Shown: one piece after another, positions 4,607 through 31,773 of the stretch
How the letters are laid out: each line of letters starts with the position of its first letter
Position numbering within the stretch: position 1 is the stretch's first letter
Assembly: GCA_030430875.1 (NCBI GenBank)
Contig: JAUIKI010000001.1
Coordinates: forward strand, 1-32,952
Origin: Gammaproteobacteria bacterium
GTDB lineage: Bacteria > Pseudomonadota > Gammaproteobacteria > Pseudomonadales > JAUIKI01
Direction of reading: 5' to 3'
Length of the DNA: 32,952 nt
The notes under the pieces: generated by a model
Told to the model about the DNA's origin: nothing
The model's database searches: none
Seen by the model: the letters and a program-made list of their open reading frames with translations, nothing else
Program-made: the position numbers and the translations under genes

Positions 4607-5734
4607 TTATTTAATTTCGAGTGTAATCTCATCAGTTAAGAACTTATGTATATTCTCAAAAAAATAGACATAAAATGGAGCCATTTCTACATGCTTAAGT
4701 TGTGCATGATATTGATACGATTTTTCACCAAGTGTATCAACACAGCCATTGAATAATAAAACCTGTCTATCATGGATTTCGGTTTGATGAAAAATGCCAT
4801 ATCTATTCTTGTTAAATGGCGGTTTGTGGAAGAGTGTGAACCCATTTTTTGATGATGAGATCACCTTTATTTCATCGGTAAGGATATGCATGAAAGGCGA
4901 TATTGTATTTTGACCAAAAATTTCTTCTGCAAGCACAGTAGTTTGAGGGTTTGTCGGTAGCTTTTTAGCGCCATTCATAACAGCAGCTATTTTTTTCTGA
5001 TCAGTGGTGAGTGAAAATAAGCATTCCTCTTGATAGGTTTCAAAGTGATAGGTTTTGTTATCGTCTAAGTCATCAATAATTGCTTTCAGCTGATTAGTCG
5101 CCGAGAAAAGAACTTTTCTTTCGACATTAGACAGAGATTCCCAGTAATCATCCCAAGTAGGGGAGCTTGATGTTTTATCAGCCAGTAAATTTTTTGCCAT
5201 GCGAATTTTTTTGAGATTATGTTTGATCCGTTCAGTTTGATTGCTTTTAATGTCTTTATTAAAAGATTCCTCAGAGATATAAATTAAAAAACTTGTTTGT
5301 TCAGGTAAATATTTGAAATATATGGTATTTGTTTCTCTGAAACTATCTTCAAAAATCACACTATGGTCATCAAAGTAGACGATGTCATAGTCTGTAAGTT
5401 GGCTTTTAAGTCCTTCGATGGCGATTGCAGTGGGATCATCCGTTTGAATGAGTAAGATTTGTGACAGATTTCCATAAGGATGAATATGATTTTCTAGCTC
5501 GATGTTGAATAAAATATTGGGGTTGCCATAAAGTTCTAGTTTATCTAATTGATAGAAAAACATTCTGTCATCATAAGAAGCTTCATAGTGAAATGGCAAA
5601 TATAGTTCAAGATTAGTAACTGTGACCGGGTATGAAACCGTTGGTTTCGCAAAAAATGCGTCAAGCTCAGCTGGATCAAGTTTGACAGTATCAACTGGTT
5701 CATTGTTCACACGCATTTCAATGTTGTTCAGCAA
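4607..5734 (-). CDS. Hypothetical protein with no family I recognise; an orphan inserted between plsB and rsmJ
   Basis: This is a 375-aa uninterrupted ORF. The track start at 5734 is TTG, and an ATG (MRVNNEP...) lies at 5716. There is no signal peptide or TM segment. It is convergent with plsB, with only 6 bp between the two stop codons. Confidence 0.6.
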   Translation of the reverse strand: MLNNIEMRVNNEPVDTVKLDPAELDAFFAKPTVSYPVTVTNLELYLPFHYEASYDDRMFFYQLDKLELYGNPNILFNIELENHIHPYGNLSQILLIQTDDPTAIAIEGLKSQLTDYDIVYFDDHSVIFEDSFRETNTIYFKYLPEQTSFLIYISEESFNKDIKSNQTERIKHNLKKIRMAKNLLADKTSSSPTWDDYWESLSNVERKVLFSATNQLKAIIDDLDDNKTYHFETYQEECLFSLTTDQKKIAAVMNGAKKLPTNPQTTVLAEEIFGQNTISPFMHILTDEIKVISSSKNGFTLFHKPPFNKNRYGIFHQTEIHDRQVLLFNGCVDTLGEKSYQYHAQLKHVEMAPFYVYFFENIHKFLTDEITLEIK

Positions 5735-5992
5735 TTCATTTGTTGGTGTTGTCGATTGTAAACGTTAGCTTATTTTTATGCATAGTGGCTTCTTTTGGAT
5801 AGATTTAAGGAATATGGTGACGTTAGCATTTAAATATGCAGAAAATATTATGCAAGCTATGAATGTTTGAGACATGATGGCAAATAAATTGAGGTTTTTG
5901 CACTAAAACAACAGTGATAAAAAATTAGGTAACATTTTTTTGATGAAGATAAATTTAGGTTCAAATGTCTTGAAAATCTCATACTCTGCTAG

Positions 5993-6055
5993 ATATTCCT
6001 GATAGTTGAGCAATATTCCTGAATTCCAGCAAAATATTCCTGAGTATTCTATTTG
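5993..6055 (+). promoter_or_regulatory. Three phased direct repeats of ATATTCCTGA plus a TATTCTATTTG box (putative transcription-factor operator array)
   Basis: The copies lie at 5993-6002, 6013-6022 and 6034-6043, spaced 20 and 21 bp apart, and the spacers are unrelated. The box is at 6045-6055. The same architecture occurs at 28160-28200. Confidence 0.5.
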
Positions 6056-6059
6056 GCTA

Positions 6060-6170
6060 TCATAGTAATTCGACGTATAGTAATGTCATCGAGGATGTGG
6101 CGACAATGTTGATAAAATCTTTGAGCAGTTCTCTCCCTTAGCCGTGCACTTAGGTGTGCGGCTTTTTATA
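6060..6170 (+). ncRNA. Candidate small RNA (orphan transcription unit; TSS not determinable from sequence)
   Basis: The + strand carries a strong intrinsic terminator at 6140-6168. No + strand ORF precedes it; the longest is a 9-codon ATG frame at 6083. Both flanking genes are on the minus strand. The repeat array and AT-rich -10-like hexamers (TATCAT at 6058, TAGTAAT at 6063) lie just upstream. Confidence 0.35.
6140..6168 (+). terminator. Rho-independent terminator, oriented on the + strand
   Basis: The stem is AGCCGTGCAC / GTGTGCGGCT, 10 bp including two G-U pairs, with a TTAG loop. It is followed by TTTTTATATTTT. The minus-strand reading lacks a U-tract. Confidence 0.7.
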
Positions 6171-26702: not shown

Positions 26703-27389
26703 CTAAAAACTTGCCCTACGAGAGACATGAGAATTATGAAAACTCATTGCGGAGATCAACAAACCACCCAAAGAAAATAATTGCACTCCAACCCAGACTA
26801 ACCAATGATTGACTGTGCGTTTCACTTGTTTAGTTTCAAGCAATTCAAATTTCCGGGTTTCACCATCTTGGAACTTTTCAGTTTTAATCCCCAAATTTTC
26901 GTAGCTGACAAAAAAAGTTCCATCTCCATTACCACCATAGATATTTAGCGCATTATCTCTATTGTCACTAAAATAAACATAGGCTGTTTCTGGGAAAAAA
27001 ATATTAAATTGCCCAATAGCTATGCATAAAACACCTGAAAACATTAATGCGACTAACAGCAATAAATATTGCTTCTTTTTATGTGTTTGATTTTTTTTCA
27101 GATCAAACGCACCATAATTCTCAATGGCGATGTGCTTGAAATATTTGCGAATGATCAGAGGGTCTAAACCGACTAATAGCTCAGTTCGATTAAGTTTAAA
27201 AACAGCTGCAATTCGATCAAAAACTTCAACCGATGGAATGGCTTTATCTTTTTCCAATTTAGAGAGATAAGAGGCATCGATTTTAAGACTCTCAGCAAGC
27301 TCTGCTTGGGTATATTGTTTATCAAGACGCAGCGTTCTGAGTTTTTCTCCGAAACTAATAAATGTACTTTGATTGACGACTGATAACAT
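26703..27389 (-). CDS. Membrane-anchored XRE-family HTH regulator (HTH, TM, roughly 65-aa extracytoplasmic segment, TM)
   Basis: The 228-aa ORF has the HTH FGEKLRTLRLDKQYTQAELAESLKIDASYLSKLEKDKAIPSVEVFDRIAAVF. Hydrophobic spans are YLLLLVALMFSGVLCIAIGQF and HWLVWVGVQLFSLGGLLISAMSF. It starts 3 nt after its paralog. Confidence 0.75.
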   Translation of the reverse strand: MLSVVNQSTFISFGEKLRTLRLDKQYTQAELAESLKIDASYLSKLEKDKAIPSVEVFDRIAAVFKLNRTELLVGLDPLIIRKYFKHIAIENYGAFDLKKNQTHKKKQYLLLLVALMFSGVLCIAIGQFNIFFPETAYVYFSDNRDNALNIYGGNGDGTFFVSYENLGIKTEKFQDGETRKFELLETKQVKRTVNHWLVWVGVQLFSLGGLLISAMSFHNSHVSRRASF

Positions 27390-27392
27390 ATT

Positions 27393-28064
27393 TTATTCCT
27401 CAGCCCCGATCAAAGAATCCTTGCCATCAATTCGGTATATAACTTTCACATAGCAAAAATACCCTATTCCCATCAACATCAATATGCCTCCCATCAATAT
27501 TAGCCAAGGATGGTGACTTTGCTCATATTTTTCCAACAAAAAGAACTCTTTAAAGTCTGCTGTTTTTTTCTCAAGAATTTCTCCGGCGTAATAATCCAGC
27601 TCAATTGTTTCTCCAGTGGATGCAAAACCATATCTAGGCTCCTCATATTTTTCCAACCATTGCTTGGTATAAAAACGTGGACCAGACTGGAGGTAGTGGT
27701 AATGCTGAGTTGGCAGCAACACTCCGCCACTCAAAAGCGCTAAACCGATCCATATCGACACAAGCGCTACCCAAGACCTATGCAGTTTTTGCGCGAGTTT
27801 CTTTAATTGTCGTTCTTTTGCGGAAATACCGATATTGCCAAAATTTTCAGATAAAAAATTTGTATCTACTCCTTCAATCAGCTCCATTAAGCTAATGTTA
27901 TAAATAGTGGCTAATTTTTCTAATATATCAATCGTTGGAATAGCACGATTATTTTCTAGTTTGGATAAGTATGACTGCTCAATATCGCTGTGAAGCGCCA
28001 ATTCTTTTTGAGTCCACTGTGTTGTTGCTCTTAAGGCGCGTAATCTTTCACCTAATTTCATCAT
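27393..28064 (-). CDS. Membrane-anchored XRE-family HTH regulator, paralog of the downstream gene
   Basis: The HTH reads LGERLRALRATTQWTQKELALHSDIEQSYLSKLENNRAIPTIDILEKLATIY. Hydrophobic spans are WVALVSIWIGLALLSGGVLLP and WLILMGGILMLMGIGYFCYV. The track start at 28073 is TTG, and ATGs lie at 28064 and 28061. Confidence 0.75.
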   Translation of the reverse strand: MMKLGERLRALRATTQWTQKELALHSDIEQSYLSKLENNRAIPTIDILEKLATIYNISLMELIEGVDTNFLSENFGNIGISAKERQLKKLAQKLHRSWVALVSIWIGLALLSGGVLLPTQHYHYLQSGPRFYTKQWLEKYEEPRYGFASTGETIELDYYAGEILEKKTADFKEFFLLEKYEQSHHPWLILMGGILMLMGIGYFCYVKVIYRIDGKDSLIGAEE

Positions 28065-28159
28065 GATCAGCAATATTTTTAATGTTAAAAACGCAGTATA
28101 GCGAGTTTCTTTTCTTTCTCAACTCCTTTTAAGTGATTGATAGTTAAGGAAAGGCAGCG

Positions 28160-28200
28160 ATATTCCTCAATAGGCATGATCATTCCTCATATTCTATTTG
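28160..28200 (+). promoter_or_regulatory. Two phased ATTCCTCA repeats plus a TATTCTATTTG box in the divergent XRE / secreted-cluster promoter region
   Basis: ATATTCCTCA is at 28160-28169 and TCATTCCTCA at 28180-28189, 20 bp apart. The identical 11-mer TATTCTATTTG follows at 28190-28200. The layout matches 5993-6055. Confidence 0.45.
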
Positions 28201-28295
28201 TGTTTCTTTGCCACAAACTGAAAATAGGCCACACAGCTTGCAGGACAACTTCAACTTGCAGCTGTATCAACAAATCAACCTAACCGGAGACAGTT

Positions 28296-28763
28296 ATGAA
28301 ACTAAAACACTTGATTGCAATATTAAGTATCACATTAACCACACCACTGGCTGCAAATGAAGTCGTTAAAACAGGAGTGGCCATCCCATTAGATTACACC
28401 GCGCTTTATCTTGTTGATAAAACATTGGCAGATTCAAAAGCTGGTGAAATTGATAAAAAACCTTATTTTGTCAAGTTAGTAGGCCTGAAACCAGGTGAAC
28501 AATATGGCAAGAATGAATCACAACTTTGGGAAGCATTGACTGATTTAGTTCAACTGGGTAGTGGCAACTCAGCAGAAGCAAGCTGTCAGATAGTTAGTAG
28601 TTTATTTCATCATGATGATTATGCTCGTGCAGCTATTTGTTCAATCGATGGTAAAGATCTTGGTGAGCAATTAATTGCAACTGGGTTTTATTCAGTGAAT
28701 CGTGATGAGACTTATGCCAAGGGAATGGATATTGCATTGGCTAAACGAAAAACAAGCGCGTGA
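28296..28763 (+). CDS. Exported staphylococcal-nuclease-like (SNase/thermonuclease fold) protein with a probable 3' frameshift
   Basis: The signal peptide is MKLKHLIAILSITLTTPLAA|NE. SNase-like blocks are LVDKTL..., YFVKLVGLKPGEQYGK and DDYARAAICSIDGKDLGEQLIATGF. The family-typical tail EKQAREKKLGIWS is encoded in a different frame at 28747-28827. Confidence 0.5.
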   Translation: MKLKHLIAILSITLTTPLAANEVVKTGVAIPLDYTALYLVDKTLADSKAGEIDKKPYFVKLVGLKPGEQYGKNESQLWEALTDLVQLGSGNSAEASCQIVSSLFHHDDYARAAICSIDGKDLGEQLIATGFYSVNRDETYAKGMDIALAKRKTSA

Positions 28764-28909
28764 GAAAAAGCTGGGGATTTGGAGTAACGTAGAAGCACCA
28801 TCATCAAGTGGTGTCATTAATCAATGACGACACGCTCTGAGATCTTTGCGCTAAAGACTCAACGATAAAAAATGGTTAAGACATTGATTTTTAATAAGGG
28901 AGAAAACAC

Positions 28910-29410
28910 ATGAAATCAATTGCTCGTTATACCCTGATCAATTTACTGCTGATGATCATGACAACCGTTGTCAATGCGGAAACTGATGCCAATTCTGGTA
29001 TTCCAAACTTGGAACCTGTCGCACTCGTTGCAACGCTTTACACTCAATCCCAAAAGACAGATAACGCGATGTTTTTTGATGAAAATGGTCTTGAGTTGCT
29101 CAAACAATATTTCACTGAAAATCTTGCAGAATTAGTCATTGCAGATCTGAAAGCAACTCAACCAGGAGATTCTGGTCGTTTAGGTTTTGATCCTTTATAT
29201 GCTGCCCAAGATTTTGAAGTAACGAATTTTGCATTGCGATTAGACGCTGTTGAAAACAGTCAGGCAAAAGTCATTGCAACTATTAAGAATTTTGGAGAGA
29301 CAGTGGAAGTAATCTTTTCATTACAACAGCGTGTAGGCCAATGGCGCATTGTAAACATTGAATATCATGAACATGAAGATTTGCTGACAATTCTCACACA
29401 AAGTAAATGA
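28910..29410 (+). CDS. Exported protein, DUF3828/YbjP-like (NTF2-like); family assignment is tentative
   Basis: The signal peptide is MKSIARYTLINLLLMIMTTVVNA|ETD. The motif GFDPLYAAQDFEV...VGQWRIVNIEY resembles my memory of DUF3828. There is a strong SD, GGGAG. Confidence 0.5.
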   Translation: MKSIARYTLINLLLMIMTTVVNAETDANSGIPNLEPVALVATLYTQSQKTDNAMFFDENGLELLKQYFTENLAELVIADLKATQPGDSGRLGFDPLYAAQDFEVTNFALRLDAVENSQAKVIATIKNFGETVEVIFSLQQRVGQWRIVNIEYHEHEDLLTILTQSK

Positions 29411-29479
29411 AACTATTTCATCATATAAATCACGGTCTATTACGGTAATTTATATTTAGAAAACTCACAGGAAAACCAA

Positions 29480-29866
29480 ATGAAAAAATTATTAGCCCTA
29501 TTGTTTATTAGCCCGCTAGGTGTCCCAATAGCATGGTGTCTTTATATGCTTATATCTAGTGGAAGTTTAAAAATTTCTGACATAAGTCTAATTTTTGCAG
29601 GTTATTTAAGTGGATTAATTGGTGCAACAACTCTTGGTGTTCCATTCTATTTTGCTCTCAAGAACTACCATAAAGAACAATCTCTTTGGCTGGTTTTATT
29701 AGGATTCTTGAGTGGCTTTTTAATGGCATTTCCAATGGTGGAGGTTGGTGGACTTGAATTTATTAATTTGACATTGATGGGGGGGGTTTCAGGGTTTACA
29801 GTGGCATTAATCGCTTGGGTTTTAATAAACGTACTTAAGATAAATAAGCCGAGACCTTTGTGCTAA
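29480..29866 (+). CDS. Small integral membrane protein with about 4 TM segments, hypothetical
   Basis: The 128-aa ORF is almost entirely hydrophobic helices. It contains the G8 tract. Confidence 0.6.
   Translation: MKKLLALLFISPLGVPIAWCLYMLISSGSLKISDISLIFAGYLSGLIGATTLGVPFYFALKNYHKEQSLWLVLLGFLSGFLMAFPMVEVGGLEFINLTLMGGVSGFTVALIAWVLINVLKINKPRPLC
29779..29786 (+). repeat. Homopolymeric G8 tract inside a coding sequence
   Basis: I read it directly as ttgatGGGGGGGGtttc, encoding M-G-G-V. It is the only long G/C run I saw in this AT-rich window. Confidence 0.9.
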
Positions 29867-30015
29867 AAATCAATGCAAGAAAAATGAGGAAAAAACTTCA
29901 GATTGAGGCGAAAAATTCAGGTAATAACGAGCTATTAACCATTTTTTATCGTTGTAGTTTTAGTGCAAAAGTCTCAGATTATTATTTCAAATTAAAACAT
30001 TCAAAGGAGCAGATA

Positions 30016-31773
30016 ATGAAACAATATTTACGAGCAATTTCAATCTTCACATTTTTACTGACGTCAGGAGCAGTATTTGCTGAAACGATAATAGTTGACA
30101 CTACGAAAGATAAATTTTCGGATTCTAAAACTGCACAATACAACTGCTTATTAGGCGAATTAAGCCCCGACTGCTCTTTACGTGAAGCTGTGCAGACAGC
30201 CAATGACCTTCCAGGAGATGACACAATCATTTTGGGTGAAGGCACTTATAAACTGACCTTGCATGGCATGGATGAAGAATACAACAAAACAGGTGATTTA
30301 GATATTAAAGACACCCTTACAATCACCGGTATTGCAGCAGAAAAAACATTCATTGATGGTGACCTTGCAGACCGAATTTTTCACCATCATAAAGGTAACT
30401 TAACTTTAAATAAGTTAACACTGATAAACGGGATAATCGTATATTCAAAAACGTTGAATACCTTTGGTACTGGAGGTGCAGCAATACTCAGTAATTTAGT
30501 GGGTAAATTAAGTATCAATCAAGTGATAGTACGAAACAATACAACTGAGTTTACAGATGAAATCTATTGCCAAATCGAAGGCATTCCATTTGAACCAAGC
30601 ATTGGAGAAGGCAATACCATTTTTTATCACGGCAACGATCTTTCCCTCACAGGATCAGCTATTATAAACAATCAATTTACCTGTTTAGGTGAACCTGCCA
30701 ATCATTTCATCTTTGGTAAAGGCTATGCTCTCTTTGCAAAAACAGATAAATTAAGGTTAGAAAATGTCTTGATTGCTAATAATGTAACTGAAGAAAGTGC
30801 TGAAAACAGGCATGCAACTGTACTGCTTGACTGTTATGGACAATCAACCTGTCAACATACTATCGATAAAGTCACTATGAGCCACAATGGTGAGCTAAAT
30901 ATCATGTTTGATTTCAATTTTGAAGAACTTAATGATGTATCGATTAATATTAACGAACTCAAATCTTCTATGGGTAGGGTATTAATCGATGCAATCAACT
31001 TTTCTGAGAATGGTGAACATAACATTGATCTCGTCATTAAAAATAGTTCATTTGAAAATTCGGAGCTCTACGGATTACAATATCAATCTTATGAAAGATA
31101 TGATGATAGCGAGCAAAAAAGTCTGATCATCGTCAATGCATCAATTGAACATTCTACATTCGCCAAAAATGGTATTGGAGTTAAATTATTTAAAAATATA
31201 GAAGATCAAAATTTTTGGTTGCTACGCAATAATACCATTAGTGGAAATACACAAGGTGGTATTGATGTAGGTGGCTTCAATGCATTGGATTTGACTTATA
31301 ACACCATTGCCTTTAATGGTGATCCAAGTAAGGATATAGATGGCGTTAATATTTTTTATGGTAGTTCGGTAACAAATGTCAATCTACTAGGCAATATTAT
31401 CAGCAATCCACAAGGTGGAAAAAGCTGTGCTGGACATACTTACCAAATGTATTCACAAACATACAATCTAGATAGCGATGGAAGTTGTTTATTCTATCAT
31501 CCAGCAGAAGGTGACATAATCGGCTTTGATCCATTATTAAAGTCACTTGCTCATAACGGCGGAAAAACTAAAACTCACGCTTTGAAAATAGGCAGTCCTG
31601 CCATTGATGCCGCTAAGGTTACTGAAAAGGATACTGGCACGGTGTTTGATCAGCGTTATGTTTCGAGAACAGGCAATGGTGTTGGCAATAATCCTGACAT
31701 AGGGTCTTTTGAACTATTTACTCCACCATCTTTGTCTTGCGATATTATCACCTGTGGTGGGCCGGAAAACTAA
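30016..31773 (+). CDS. Secreted right-handed parallel beta-helix protein with an N-terminal CSLREA motif
   Basis: The track start at 29860 (GTG) is over-extended. The ATG at 30016 follows AAGGAG and gives the signal peptide MKQYLRAISIFTFLLTSGAVFA|ETI. A literal CSLREAVQTANDLPGDDTIILGEGTY is present, followed by many N/G/I-rich beta-helix-like repeats. The C-terminus reads FDQRYVSR...NPDIGSFE. Confidence 0.75.
   Translation: MKQYLRAISIFTFLLTSGAVFAETIIVDTTKDKFSDSKTAQYNCLLGELSPDCSLREAVQTANDLPGDDTIILGEGTYKLTLHGMDEEYNKTGDLDIKDTLTITGIAAEKTFIDGDLADRIFHHHKGNLTLNKLTLINGIIVYSKTLNTFGTGGAAILSNLVGKLSINQVIVRNNTTEFTDEIYCQIEGIPFEPSIGEGNTIFYHGNDLSLTGSAIINNQFTCLGEPANHFIFGKGYALFAKTDKLRLENVLIANNVTEESAENRHATVLLDCYGQSTCQHTIDKVTMSHNGELNIMFDFNFEELNDVSININELKSSMGRVLIDAINFSENGEHNIDLVIKNSSFENSELYGLQYQSYERYDDSEQKSLIIVNASIEHSTFAKNGIGVKLFKNIEDQNFWLLRNNTISGNTQGGIDVGGFNALDLTYNTIAFNGDPSKDIDGVNIFYGSSVTNVNLLGNIISNPQGGKSCAGHTYQMYSQTYNLDSDGSCLFYHPAEGDIIGFDPLLKSLAHNGGKTKTHALKIGSPAIDAAKVTEKDTGTVFDQRYVSRTGNGVGNNPDIGSFELFTPPSLSCDIITCGGPEN

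Follow-up and report, generated by a model that had tools for sequence, protein, structure and literature searches.

The intergenic spacer between the regulator genes XRE1 and XRE2 and a divergently oriented cluster of genes for exported proteins carries a set of short repeats, which raises the questions of which factor recognises these repeats and which of the two flanking transcription units they serve. The spacer lies in a stretch of 32,952 nucleotides (the window) from a gammaproteobacterial genome assembly of 1.71 Mb (306 contigs, 38.6% G+C, 75% complete). An earlier note on this DNA had described the repeats as an operator shared by both units, in the classic position for an autoregulating local regulator. 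The claimed elements were read from the sequence and are present on the + strand: the distal repeat ATATTCCTCA, with the core TATTCCT, at 28160..28169 (29 bp 5′ of the proximal ATTCTA element), the second repeat TCATTCCTCA at 28180..28189 (20 bp, or two helical turns, after the first) and the TATTCTATTTG box at 28190..28200, for which the best reading is a degenerate third repeat (TATTCTA) joined directly to a -35-like hexamer. The array stretch as a whole has the sequence gcgATATTCCTCAataggcatgaTCATTCCTCATATTCTATTTGtg, the spacer sequence includes ...gcgATATTCCTCAataggcatgaTCATTCCTCATATTCTATTTGtgtttc..., and the copies of ATTCCTCA at 28162 and 28182 (+ strand) are phased by exactly 20 bp. The + strand distances that had been given were correct (repeats 134 and 114 nt, and box 106-96 nt, from the ATG at 28296), and on the other side the elements do lie about 89-136 nt from the start of XRE1. 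Alignment with homologue N-termini made ATG 28067 or 28064 a more likely start of XRE1 than TTG 28073, and the spacer therefore measures 222-231 bp, according to the start chosen.

Two bare counts in the window were non-significant: the 8-mer ATTCCTCA occurred 4 times against 1.5 expected (8 of 100 shuffles reached 4), and the 11-mer TATTCTATTTG with one mismatch allowed was likewise not over-represented. Spacing and combination were more distinctive. Same-strand pairs of ATTCCT in the 1.71-Mb genome were found twice at 20 bp and four times at 21 bp, with about 0.3 expected in each spacing bin, that is, a sharp peak with roughly 10-fold over-representation at 20-21 bp. The composite ATTCCTSA(K)TATTCTATTTG, 19-20 nt in length, has exactly two genomic copies, one at 28182 in the focal array and the other at 6036, at a remote small RNA (sRNA) locus in the same window. 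The third genomic copy of TATTCTATTTG (C162:2484) and the extra copies of ATTCCTCA at 5266 and 27395 are solitary and lie inside coding sequence. The focal repeats are real and non-random in arrangement. Footprinting of the focal spacer found no close relatives: a search of genome contigs with a single protein gave no match, the 40 nearest genomes all belonged to other families, with best matches there at E values of at least 4e-10, and a search of metagenome contigs returned one distant match.

On the + strand side, the candidate target is a cluster of four co-oriented genes (28296..31773), encoding a 155-aa protein with a signal peptide (28296-28827), a DUF3828 protein, a protein with four transmembrane (TM) segments and a 585-aa secreted protein with a CSLREA motif (30016-31773). 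No convincing + strand terminator was detected between the cluster genes, and one weak hairpin was located inside the second gene. The label 'SNase-like', which had been attached to the product of the first gene, was dropped after neither the 155-aa product nor the alternative-frame tail gave a Pfam match at E <= 1; the 155-aa product also had no PDB sequence match at E <= 1. The window copy of the 585-aa protein matched no Pfam family. It has a paralogue of 525 aa elsewhere in the genome (C76:1184-2761; 30% identity over 356 aa, E = 1e-29), the gene for which lies directly behind another TATTCCT array.

On the - strand side, XRE1 (27393..28067) consists of an N-terminal XRE-type helix-turn-helix (HTH) domain with the helix IEQSYLSKLE, followed by TM1 (99-117) and TM2 (188-206) with a loop of some 70 aa between them. 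XRE2 (26703..27389, - strand) is a paralogue of XRE1 with about 30% identity, the same architecture and the helix IDASYLSKLE; it starts 3 nt after XRE1, and the two genes, whose products are 223-228 aa long, are probably co-transcribed. In Pfam, XRE1 scored 50 bits with HTH_19 (cut-off 30.2) and 46.2 bits with HTH_3 (cut-off 23), which places it in the XRE class, and XRE2 scored 45.5 and 45 bits, respectively, again above the curated cut-offs. The HTH is the sole Pfam domain in either protein, and no receiver or kinase domain was found. Hydropathy prediction gave two hydrophobic 19-mers in each (99-117 and 188-206 in XRE1; 108-126 and 197-215 in XRE2), and both proteins combine a DNA-binding domain and a predicted TM helix in one polypeptide, as is characteristic of transmembrane transcription regulators.

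Six such membrane XRE genes were found in the genome, two on the window contig (C284), two on C162 and one each on C296 and C256; one of the C162 paralogues (C162a) has a recognition helix identical to that of XRE1. At C284 and C256, two of the four loci, the divergent spacer contains an array, and the distances are almost equal; with about 10-11 arrays in the genome, the probability of at least two of four by chance was estimated, rather than computed, to be well under 1 in 1,000. At the C256 locus (C256:2778-5460), the third membrane XRE paralogue has a TATTCAT array in divergent orientation at 97-133 nt; next come about 440 bp without a clear ORF, which may hold another small RNA or small peptide gene, and then three genes, the first of which we take by eye to encode an ECF-type sigma factor and the next two membrane proteins.

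To place XRE1 and XRE2 in a wider family, 80 homologous loci in named genomes were fetched by means of the conserved helix peptide, and the paralogues were aligned with the distant matches. The loci come from gamma- and alphaproteobacteria, including Kangiella, Marinicella, Colwellia, Thalassotalea, Aliikangiella, Cellvibrio, Pseudohongiella, Steroidobacteraceae, Maricaulis and Kordiimonas. The presence of 6-mers was counted, without bias, in the 260 bp upstream of the regulator gene, with 1,270 windows of the same loci as controls. The top upstream 6-mers (n=80; observed versus expected) were ATATTC (76 vs 13.4), TATTCC (62 vs 10), ATTCCT (63 vs 11.4) and TATTCA (70 vs 15.1). The heptamer TATTC[ACT]T reached 10.3 per kb upstream, the remaining intergenic DNA of these loci having 0.68 per kb (15-fold), and at least two copies were present in 55 of 80 upstream regions as opposed to 2 of 143 controls. 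A TATTCYT-type motif is thus enriched upstream of the genes of this family across taxa. When flanking ORFs were clustered, the regulator gene was the only gene common to the 80 loci, the next ORF family being found at 9 of them. A profile search gave 148 family representatives at E <= 1e-30, and among the 135 top representatives with at most 300 aa, 85 have exactly IEQSYLSKLE, to which the helix of XRE1 is identical. Co-variation of helix and motif was uninformative: the helix is nearly invariant, and in the one subfamily that varies (Y to W) the ATTCC core is retained. A literature search for this membrane XRE family found nothing, and NCBIfam returned generic HTH matches only, all below cut-off; the family is without a name.

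The homologous loci share a promoter layout. In them, the sense strand of the regulator gene carries the repeats, which are found 50-120 nt ahead of the start and flank a weak -35 (a 3/6 match in 26 of 32 strictly anchored loci). R1 precedes R2 ((T)ATTCAT) by 20 bp, R3 (ATTCYT) follows R2 by 12 bp, and further repeats occur at R2-10, -30 and -40. In 29 of the 32 anchored loci the hexamer AANAAT is found exactly 18 bp after R3 (AAGAAT 18, AACAAT 8, AAAAAT 2, GAGAAT 1). It is most probably the -10, because usually just 25-60 nt are left to the ATG, and this assignment would centre R2 near -41 and R1 near -61. Many homologues also have an inverted GAATA copy that coincides with the likely -10. 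In a sister subfamily with the helix VEQSWLSKIE, ATTCC/GGAAT elements were present upstream in 5 of 6 loci, four of which show the tight palindrome ATTCC-N4-5-GGAAT/AGAAT, a classic layout for an HTH dimer; at the sister-subfamily loci L117-L122 (Pseudohongiella and related MAGs), the palindrome is followed by GGTAATACT or CGGTAATGG. Another arrangement was observed at five loci of the Colwellia/Thalassotalea type (L059, L069, L072, L082 and L091), where a large palindrome, TATTCNN-N3-TATTCNN ... AGGAATA-N3-AAGAATA, lies 150-430 nt 5′ of the start codon, which implies long leaders. What had looked like an antisense array at L091 is actually the inverted arm of such a canonical operator with a long leader.

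These comparisons give good support for assigning the motif to the family of membrane-anchored XRE regulators. The strongest candidate for the binding factor is a membrane XRE protein, because the motif is enriched family-wide, the regulator gene is the sole gene common to the loci, and the helix of XRE1 matches that of the family exactly. The proposal that the XRE pair itself recognises the motif was upheld as far as the family link and the exact helix of XRE1 go; adjacency and the helix match make this pair the tentative choice among the paralogues.

In motif, in 10/20-bp phasing and in -35/-10 offsets, the focal repeats agree with those of the family. The proximal ATTCTA (28191) was taken as the equivalent of the family R2, and the other two repeats lie 9 and 29 bp 5′ of it. 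Counted from this element, TTGTGT is found at +7 and GAAAAT at +29, the corresponding family R2 offsets being +7 and +30, so that the focal site is 1 bp off. These hexamers form a putative activator-dependent promoter, TTGTGT-16-GAAAAT (28198..28225, + strand, 7/12 match), which was assigned by analogy with the promoter of the sRNA locus; the + strand transcript would then start near 28232 and have a 5′ UTR of about 64 nt. The proximal spacing at the focal site is 9-10 bp versus 12 bp between R2 and R3 in the family, and the usual family -10 at +18 is absent. An alternative promoter-like site, TTGATA-16-GATATT (28137..28164, + strand, 9/12 match), has a -10 that overlaps the distal repeat. A sigma-54 or LuxO-type reading of the box was rejected by eye, there being no GG/GC pair at -24/-12. 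For the XRE1-XRE2 operon, the probable promoter is the sigma-70-like TTGAGA-16-TATACT (28095..28122, - strand, 10/12 match), which stands apart from the array: its -35 is 38 bp from the nearest repeat, it overlaps no repeat, and it reads away from the array. The spacer contains no sense-strand repeat for XRE1, and the array reads the opposite way.

The earlier note had also placed the motif at a remote sRNA locus, and the same directional array does precede the sRNA there. At this locus (5993..6170, + strand), ATATTCCTGA is present three times, at 5993, 6013 and 6034 (phased by 20 and 21 bp), and is followed by TATTCTATTTG at 6045. A predicted promoter, TTGGCT-17-TATAGT (6053-6081, + strand), and a strong terminator with a T-run (6140-6163, + strand), about 60 nt past the promoter, come after the repeats, and the array therefore reads toward the downstream unit. 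There is no ORF between promoter and terminator, and the predicted product is an ORF-less RNA of about 80 nt, which is left unclassified because an Rfam scan of the whole window matched no family. Counted from ATTCTA (6046), TTGGCT is at +7 and TATAGT at +30, which are exactly the offsets from R2 to the -35 and -10 in the family. A second promoter-like site, TTGAAA-16-GATATT (5970-5997, + strand), has the same layout as that at 28137-28164. TTGAnA stands exactly 16 bp before the GATATT of the distal repeat at both loci, and as a promoter it would put the repeats inside the transcript.

When the genome was scanned for clusters of TATTC[ACT]T / ATTCCT, about 10-11 array loci were obtained, two of them on the window contig (the focal and sRNA arrays). 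The others are at C15:4126, C76:1116, C135:2487, C175:11156, C256:3552, C293:1174, C293:2802 and C301:3806, together with a doubtful one at C250:6587. Arrays precede genes for signal-peptide proteins and for Cys-rich secreted peptides of 70-73 aa (C175, C293), and a TAnnnT hexamer follows the start of the proximal repeat by 17-18 bp in 8 of 8 arrays outside the window contig. The C175 array lies 3′ of a gene that, as read by eye, presumably encodes a peptide-exporter ABC protein with a C39-type peptidase N-terminus. All ten clear arrays are on the + strand of their nine contigs (chance about 0.4% if contig orientation is random), and four arrays lie within 450 bp of a contig 3′ end; repetition of the downstream genes, through its effect on assembly, may account for this bias of strand and position. 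In eight other genomes, matches to TATTCATN{3,6}TATTCYT beyond the regulator loci looked like chance two-copy occurrences. Expansion of the regulon seems specific to the present genome, because in those eight the matches mark essentially the regulator loci.

Taken together, the focal array is one-directional and most likely controls the + strand exported-protein operon, with the sRNA as the controlled unit at the second locus. We favour, with confidence somewhat above even, a model in which the three elements are candidate sites for a membrane XRE protein (likeliest XRE1, possibly with XRE2) that activates the exported-protein cluster and the sRNA. XRE1 and XRE2 would each expose the HTH to the cytoplasm, and the segment of about 70 aa between TM1 and TM2 would form a loop outside the membrane. 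The sites would be head-to-tail TATTCYT-type half-sites, 20 and 9 bp apart, which form a directional array and, given this spacing, should lie on one helix face. TATTCTA would be centred near -41 of the weak + strand promoter and the two other copies near -50 and -70, and the bound regulator may recruit RNA polymerase to the cluster at 28296-31773. The same protein or proteins could drive the small RNA at ~6.09 kb through the near-identical array, while the XRE operon would be read from its own near-consensus promoter (28095-28122), on which any effect of the array would be secondary. The repeats with their phasing and statistics, the family-wide association of motif and regulator gene and the conserved offsets were observed directly; the identity of the paralogue, the transcription starts, the choice of activation over repression and the signal sensed are what we infer here. 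Several points count against the model: the + strand promoter is a 7/12 match, the proximal spacing is 9-10 bp instead of the 12 bp of the family and the -10 at +18 is missing, XRE HTH dimers normally favour inverted repeats, and the genome has six paralogues with nearly the same helix, so that the choice of XRE1/XRE2 depends on adjacency. In addition, TTGAnA-16-GATATT overlaps the distal repeat at both loci on the window contig, and if it were a real promoter, the repeats downstream of it would be repressor sites.

That last possibility forms an explanation of its own, in which TTGATA-16-GATATT (28137-28164) is the promoter in use, the regulator, once bound, covers it and also stops elongation, and the sRNA is a repressed RNA, about 165 nt long, from a start near 6004. 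Most characterised XRE regulators are repressors, both loci on the window contig have a 9/12 site with a 16-bp spacer ending in the GATATT of the first repeat, and the inverted GAATA copy falls on the likely -10 in many homologues. No such upstream promoter was seen, however, at the other eight arrays or at the homologous loci, the match to GATATT follows in part from the repeat sequence itself, and the downstream -35 and -10 stand, at both loci, at distances from ATTCTA that follow the family layout. We rate repression below activation and regard it as quite improbable. It is also unlikely, though a little less so, that the array acts in both directions, as an operator shared by the two units, and lets the XRE pair autoregulate its own operon along with the exported-protein cluster, as had originally been proposed. 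The family does seem to be autoregulated, since most of the 80 loci have the motif in front of the regulator gene; the C256 paralogue has its array at 97-133 nt in the same divergent orientation, and activators at -70 to -110 can influence divergent promoters. However, the layout does not support a classic autoregulatory position: the homologues carry sense-strand repeats that flank the -35 at -50 to -120, and XRE1 has none. The XRE operon has a separate 10/12 promoter, 38 bp off, that should need no activator and overlaps no repeat, and the layout of the array fits the + strand promoter. No feature was seen that favours a bidirectional effect on the XRE promoter, and the minus-strand XRE promoters of C256 and C284, when compared, had no common layout relative to their arrays.

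Two further explanations concern the motif itself. Direct repeats with a 10-bp or 20-21-bp phase that flank a -35 are typical of OmpR/PhoB-type and LytTR-type response regulators, and the genome encodes one LytTR and four OmpR-type proteins, any of which might bind the repeats, with the XRE genes being members of the regulon. This we consider very unlikely: none of those genes is located on an array contig, the XRE gene is the only constant neighbour of the motif across the 80 loci, and the tight palindrome of the sister subfamily is typical of HTH dimers. That the resemblance arose by chance in AT-rich intergenic DNA would agree with the non-significant bare 8-mer count and one-mismatch 11-mer count, but it has to be set against the 20-21 bp spacing peak, the 19-20-nt composite unique to two loci, the family-wide enrichment and the conserved offsets, and it can hardly be entertained.

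Beyond activation of the cluster and the sRNA by a membrane XRE protein, which remains the preferred reading, a broader scheme may be put forward tentatively, as one that we would sooner doubt than accept. The family might be purely autoregulatory elsewhere, whereas here it may have expanded to six paralogues, and its arrays could have moved from its own promoters to about ten promoters of genes for secreted proteins, Cys-rich peptides and the sRNA. Such a system might sense the envelope or peptides, with the XRE HTH bound head-to-tail to direct repeats on one helix face, and activate through a PhoB/ToxR-like substitution of the -35, perhaps with a peptide-autoinduction loop and the sRNA as a feed-forward arm. 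Membrane one-component regulators are abundant and few have been studied, none of them from the XRE1/XRE2 family; the motif, the conserved promoter layout and a small candidate regulon (the exported-protein operon, the sRNA, the secreted peptides and the paralogous CSLREA-motif proteins) make this family directly testable, and the palindrome of the sister subfamily offers a compact operator suited to a binding test. For annotation of the locus, the simple picture of a local autoregulator is corrected, as the array points at the neighbouring operon. The locus also provides a case of an XRE HTH that would use direct-repeat arrays in a layout typical of activators.

Transmembrane transcription regulators such as ToxR, TcpP and CadC, with BcrR as an XRE-type example, have been surveyed, and the HTH is their commonest DNA-binding domain (PMC10269533). 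XRE1 and XRE2 resemble this class in having a cytoplasmic DNA-binding domain that is predicted to be tethered to the membrane, without a kinase or receiver, and the candidate targets here are likewise exported or envelope proteins. They differ from ToxR and CadC in carrying an XRE-type domain instead of a winged helix, and from BcrR in having two TM helices, separated by a short loop of about 70 aa, where BcrR has four. ToxR recognises direct repeats 5′ of, or overlapping, the -35 (cited in PMC10269533), and in the pho box of PhoB, as in class II activation (lambda cI at PRM), direct repeats on one face of the helix lie on either side of a poor -35 or take its place, the distance to the -10 being fixed, as the present repeats appear to do. 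PhoB has another protein fold, no phosphorelay is evident here, and the mechanism proposed for XRE1/XRE2 was deduced from layout alone; the resemblance to the pho box and to ToxR sites is accordingly an analogy of mechanism and not of family membership.

Among proteins of solved structure, the closest relatives of the XRE1 HTH included DdrO (E = 1.6e-9), ImmR and then SinR (E = 2e-5). DdrO, an XRE repressor of Deinococcus and the best solved-structure match to XRE1, is alike in HTH sequence; unlike XRE1, it is soluble, is cleaved by a metalloprotease, has no membrane anchor and binds a palindrome with another motif. SinR and SlrR of Bacillus subtilis share the XRE-type HTH, and the paralogue pair XRE1-XRE2 could form mixed oligomers as SinR-SlrR do. 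SinR recognises GTTCTYT, a 7-bp site that occurs in varying number and orientation (PMC3163267). A similarly short monomer site (TATTCYT vs GTTCTYT) would occur here in tandem and inverted arrangements at different promoters, the half-sites in the family sequences being arranged as direct arrays, as direct plus inverted copies or as a tight palindrome. SinR is, however, a soluble repressor that forms tetramers through its C-terminal domain and is antagonised by SinI; its tetramerisation domain was not detected by Pfam in XRE1 or XRE2, which are predicted to be anchored in the membrane and whose site layout suggests activation.
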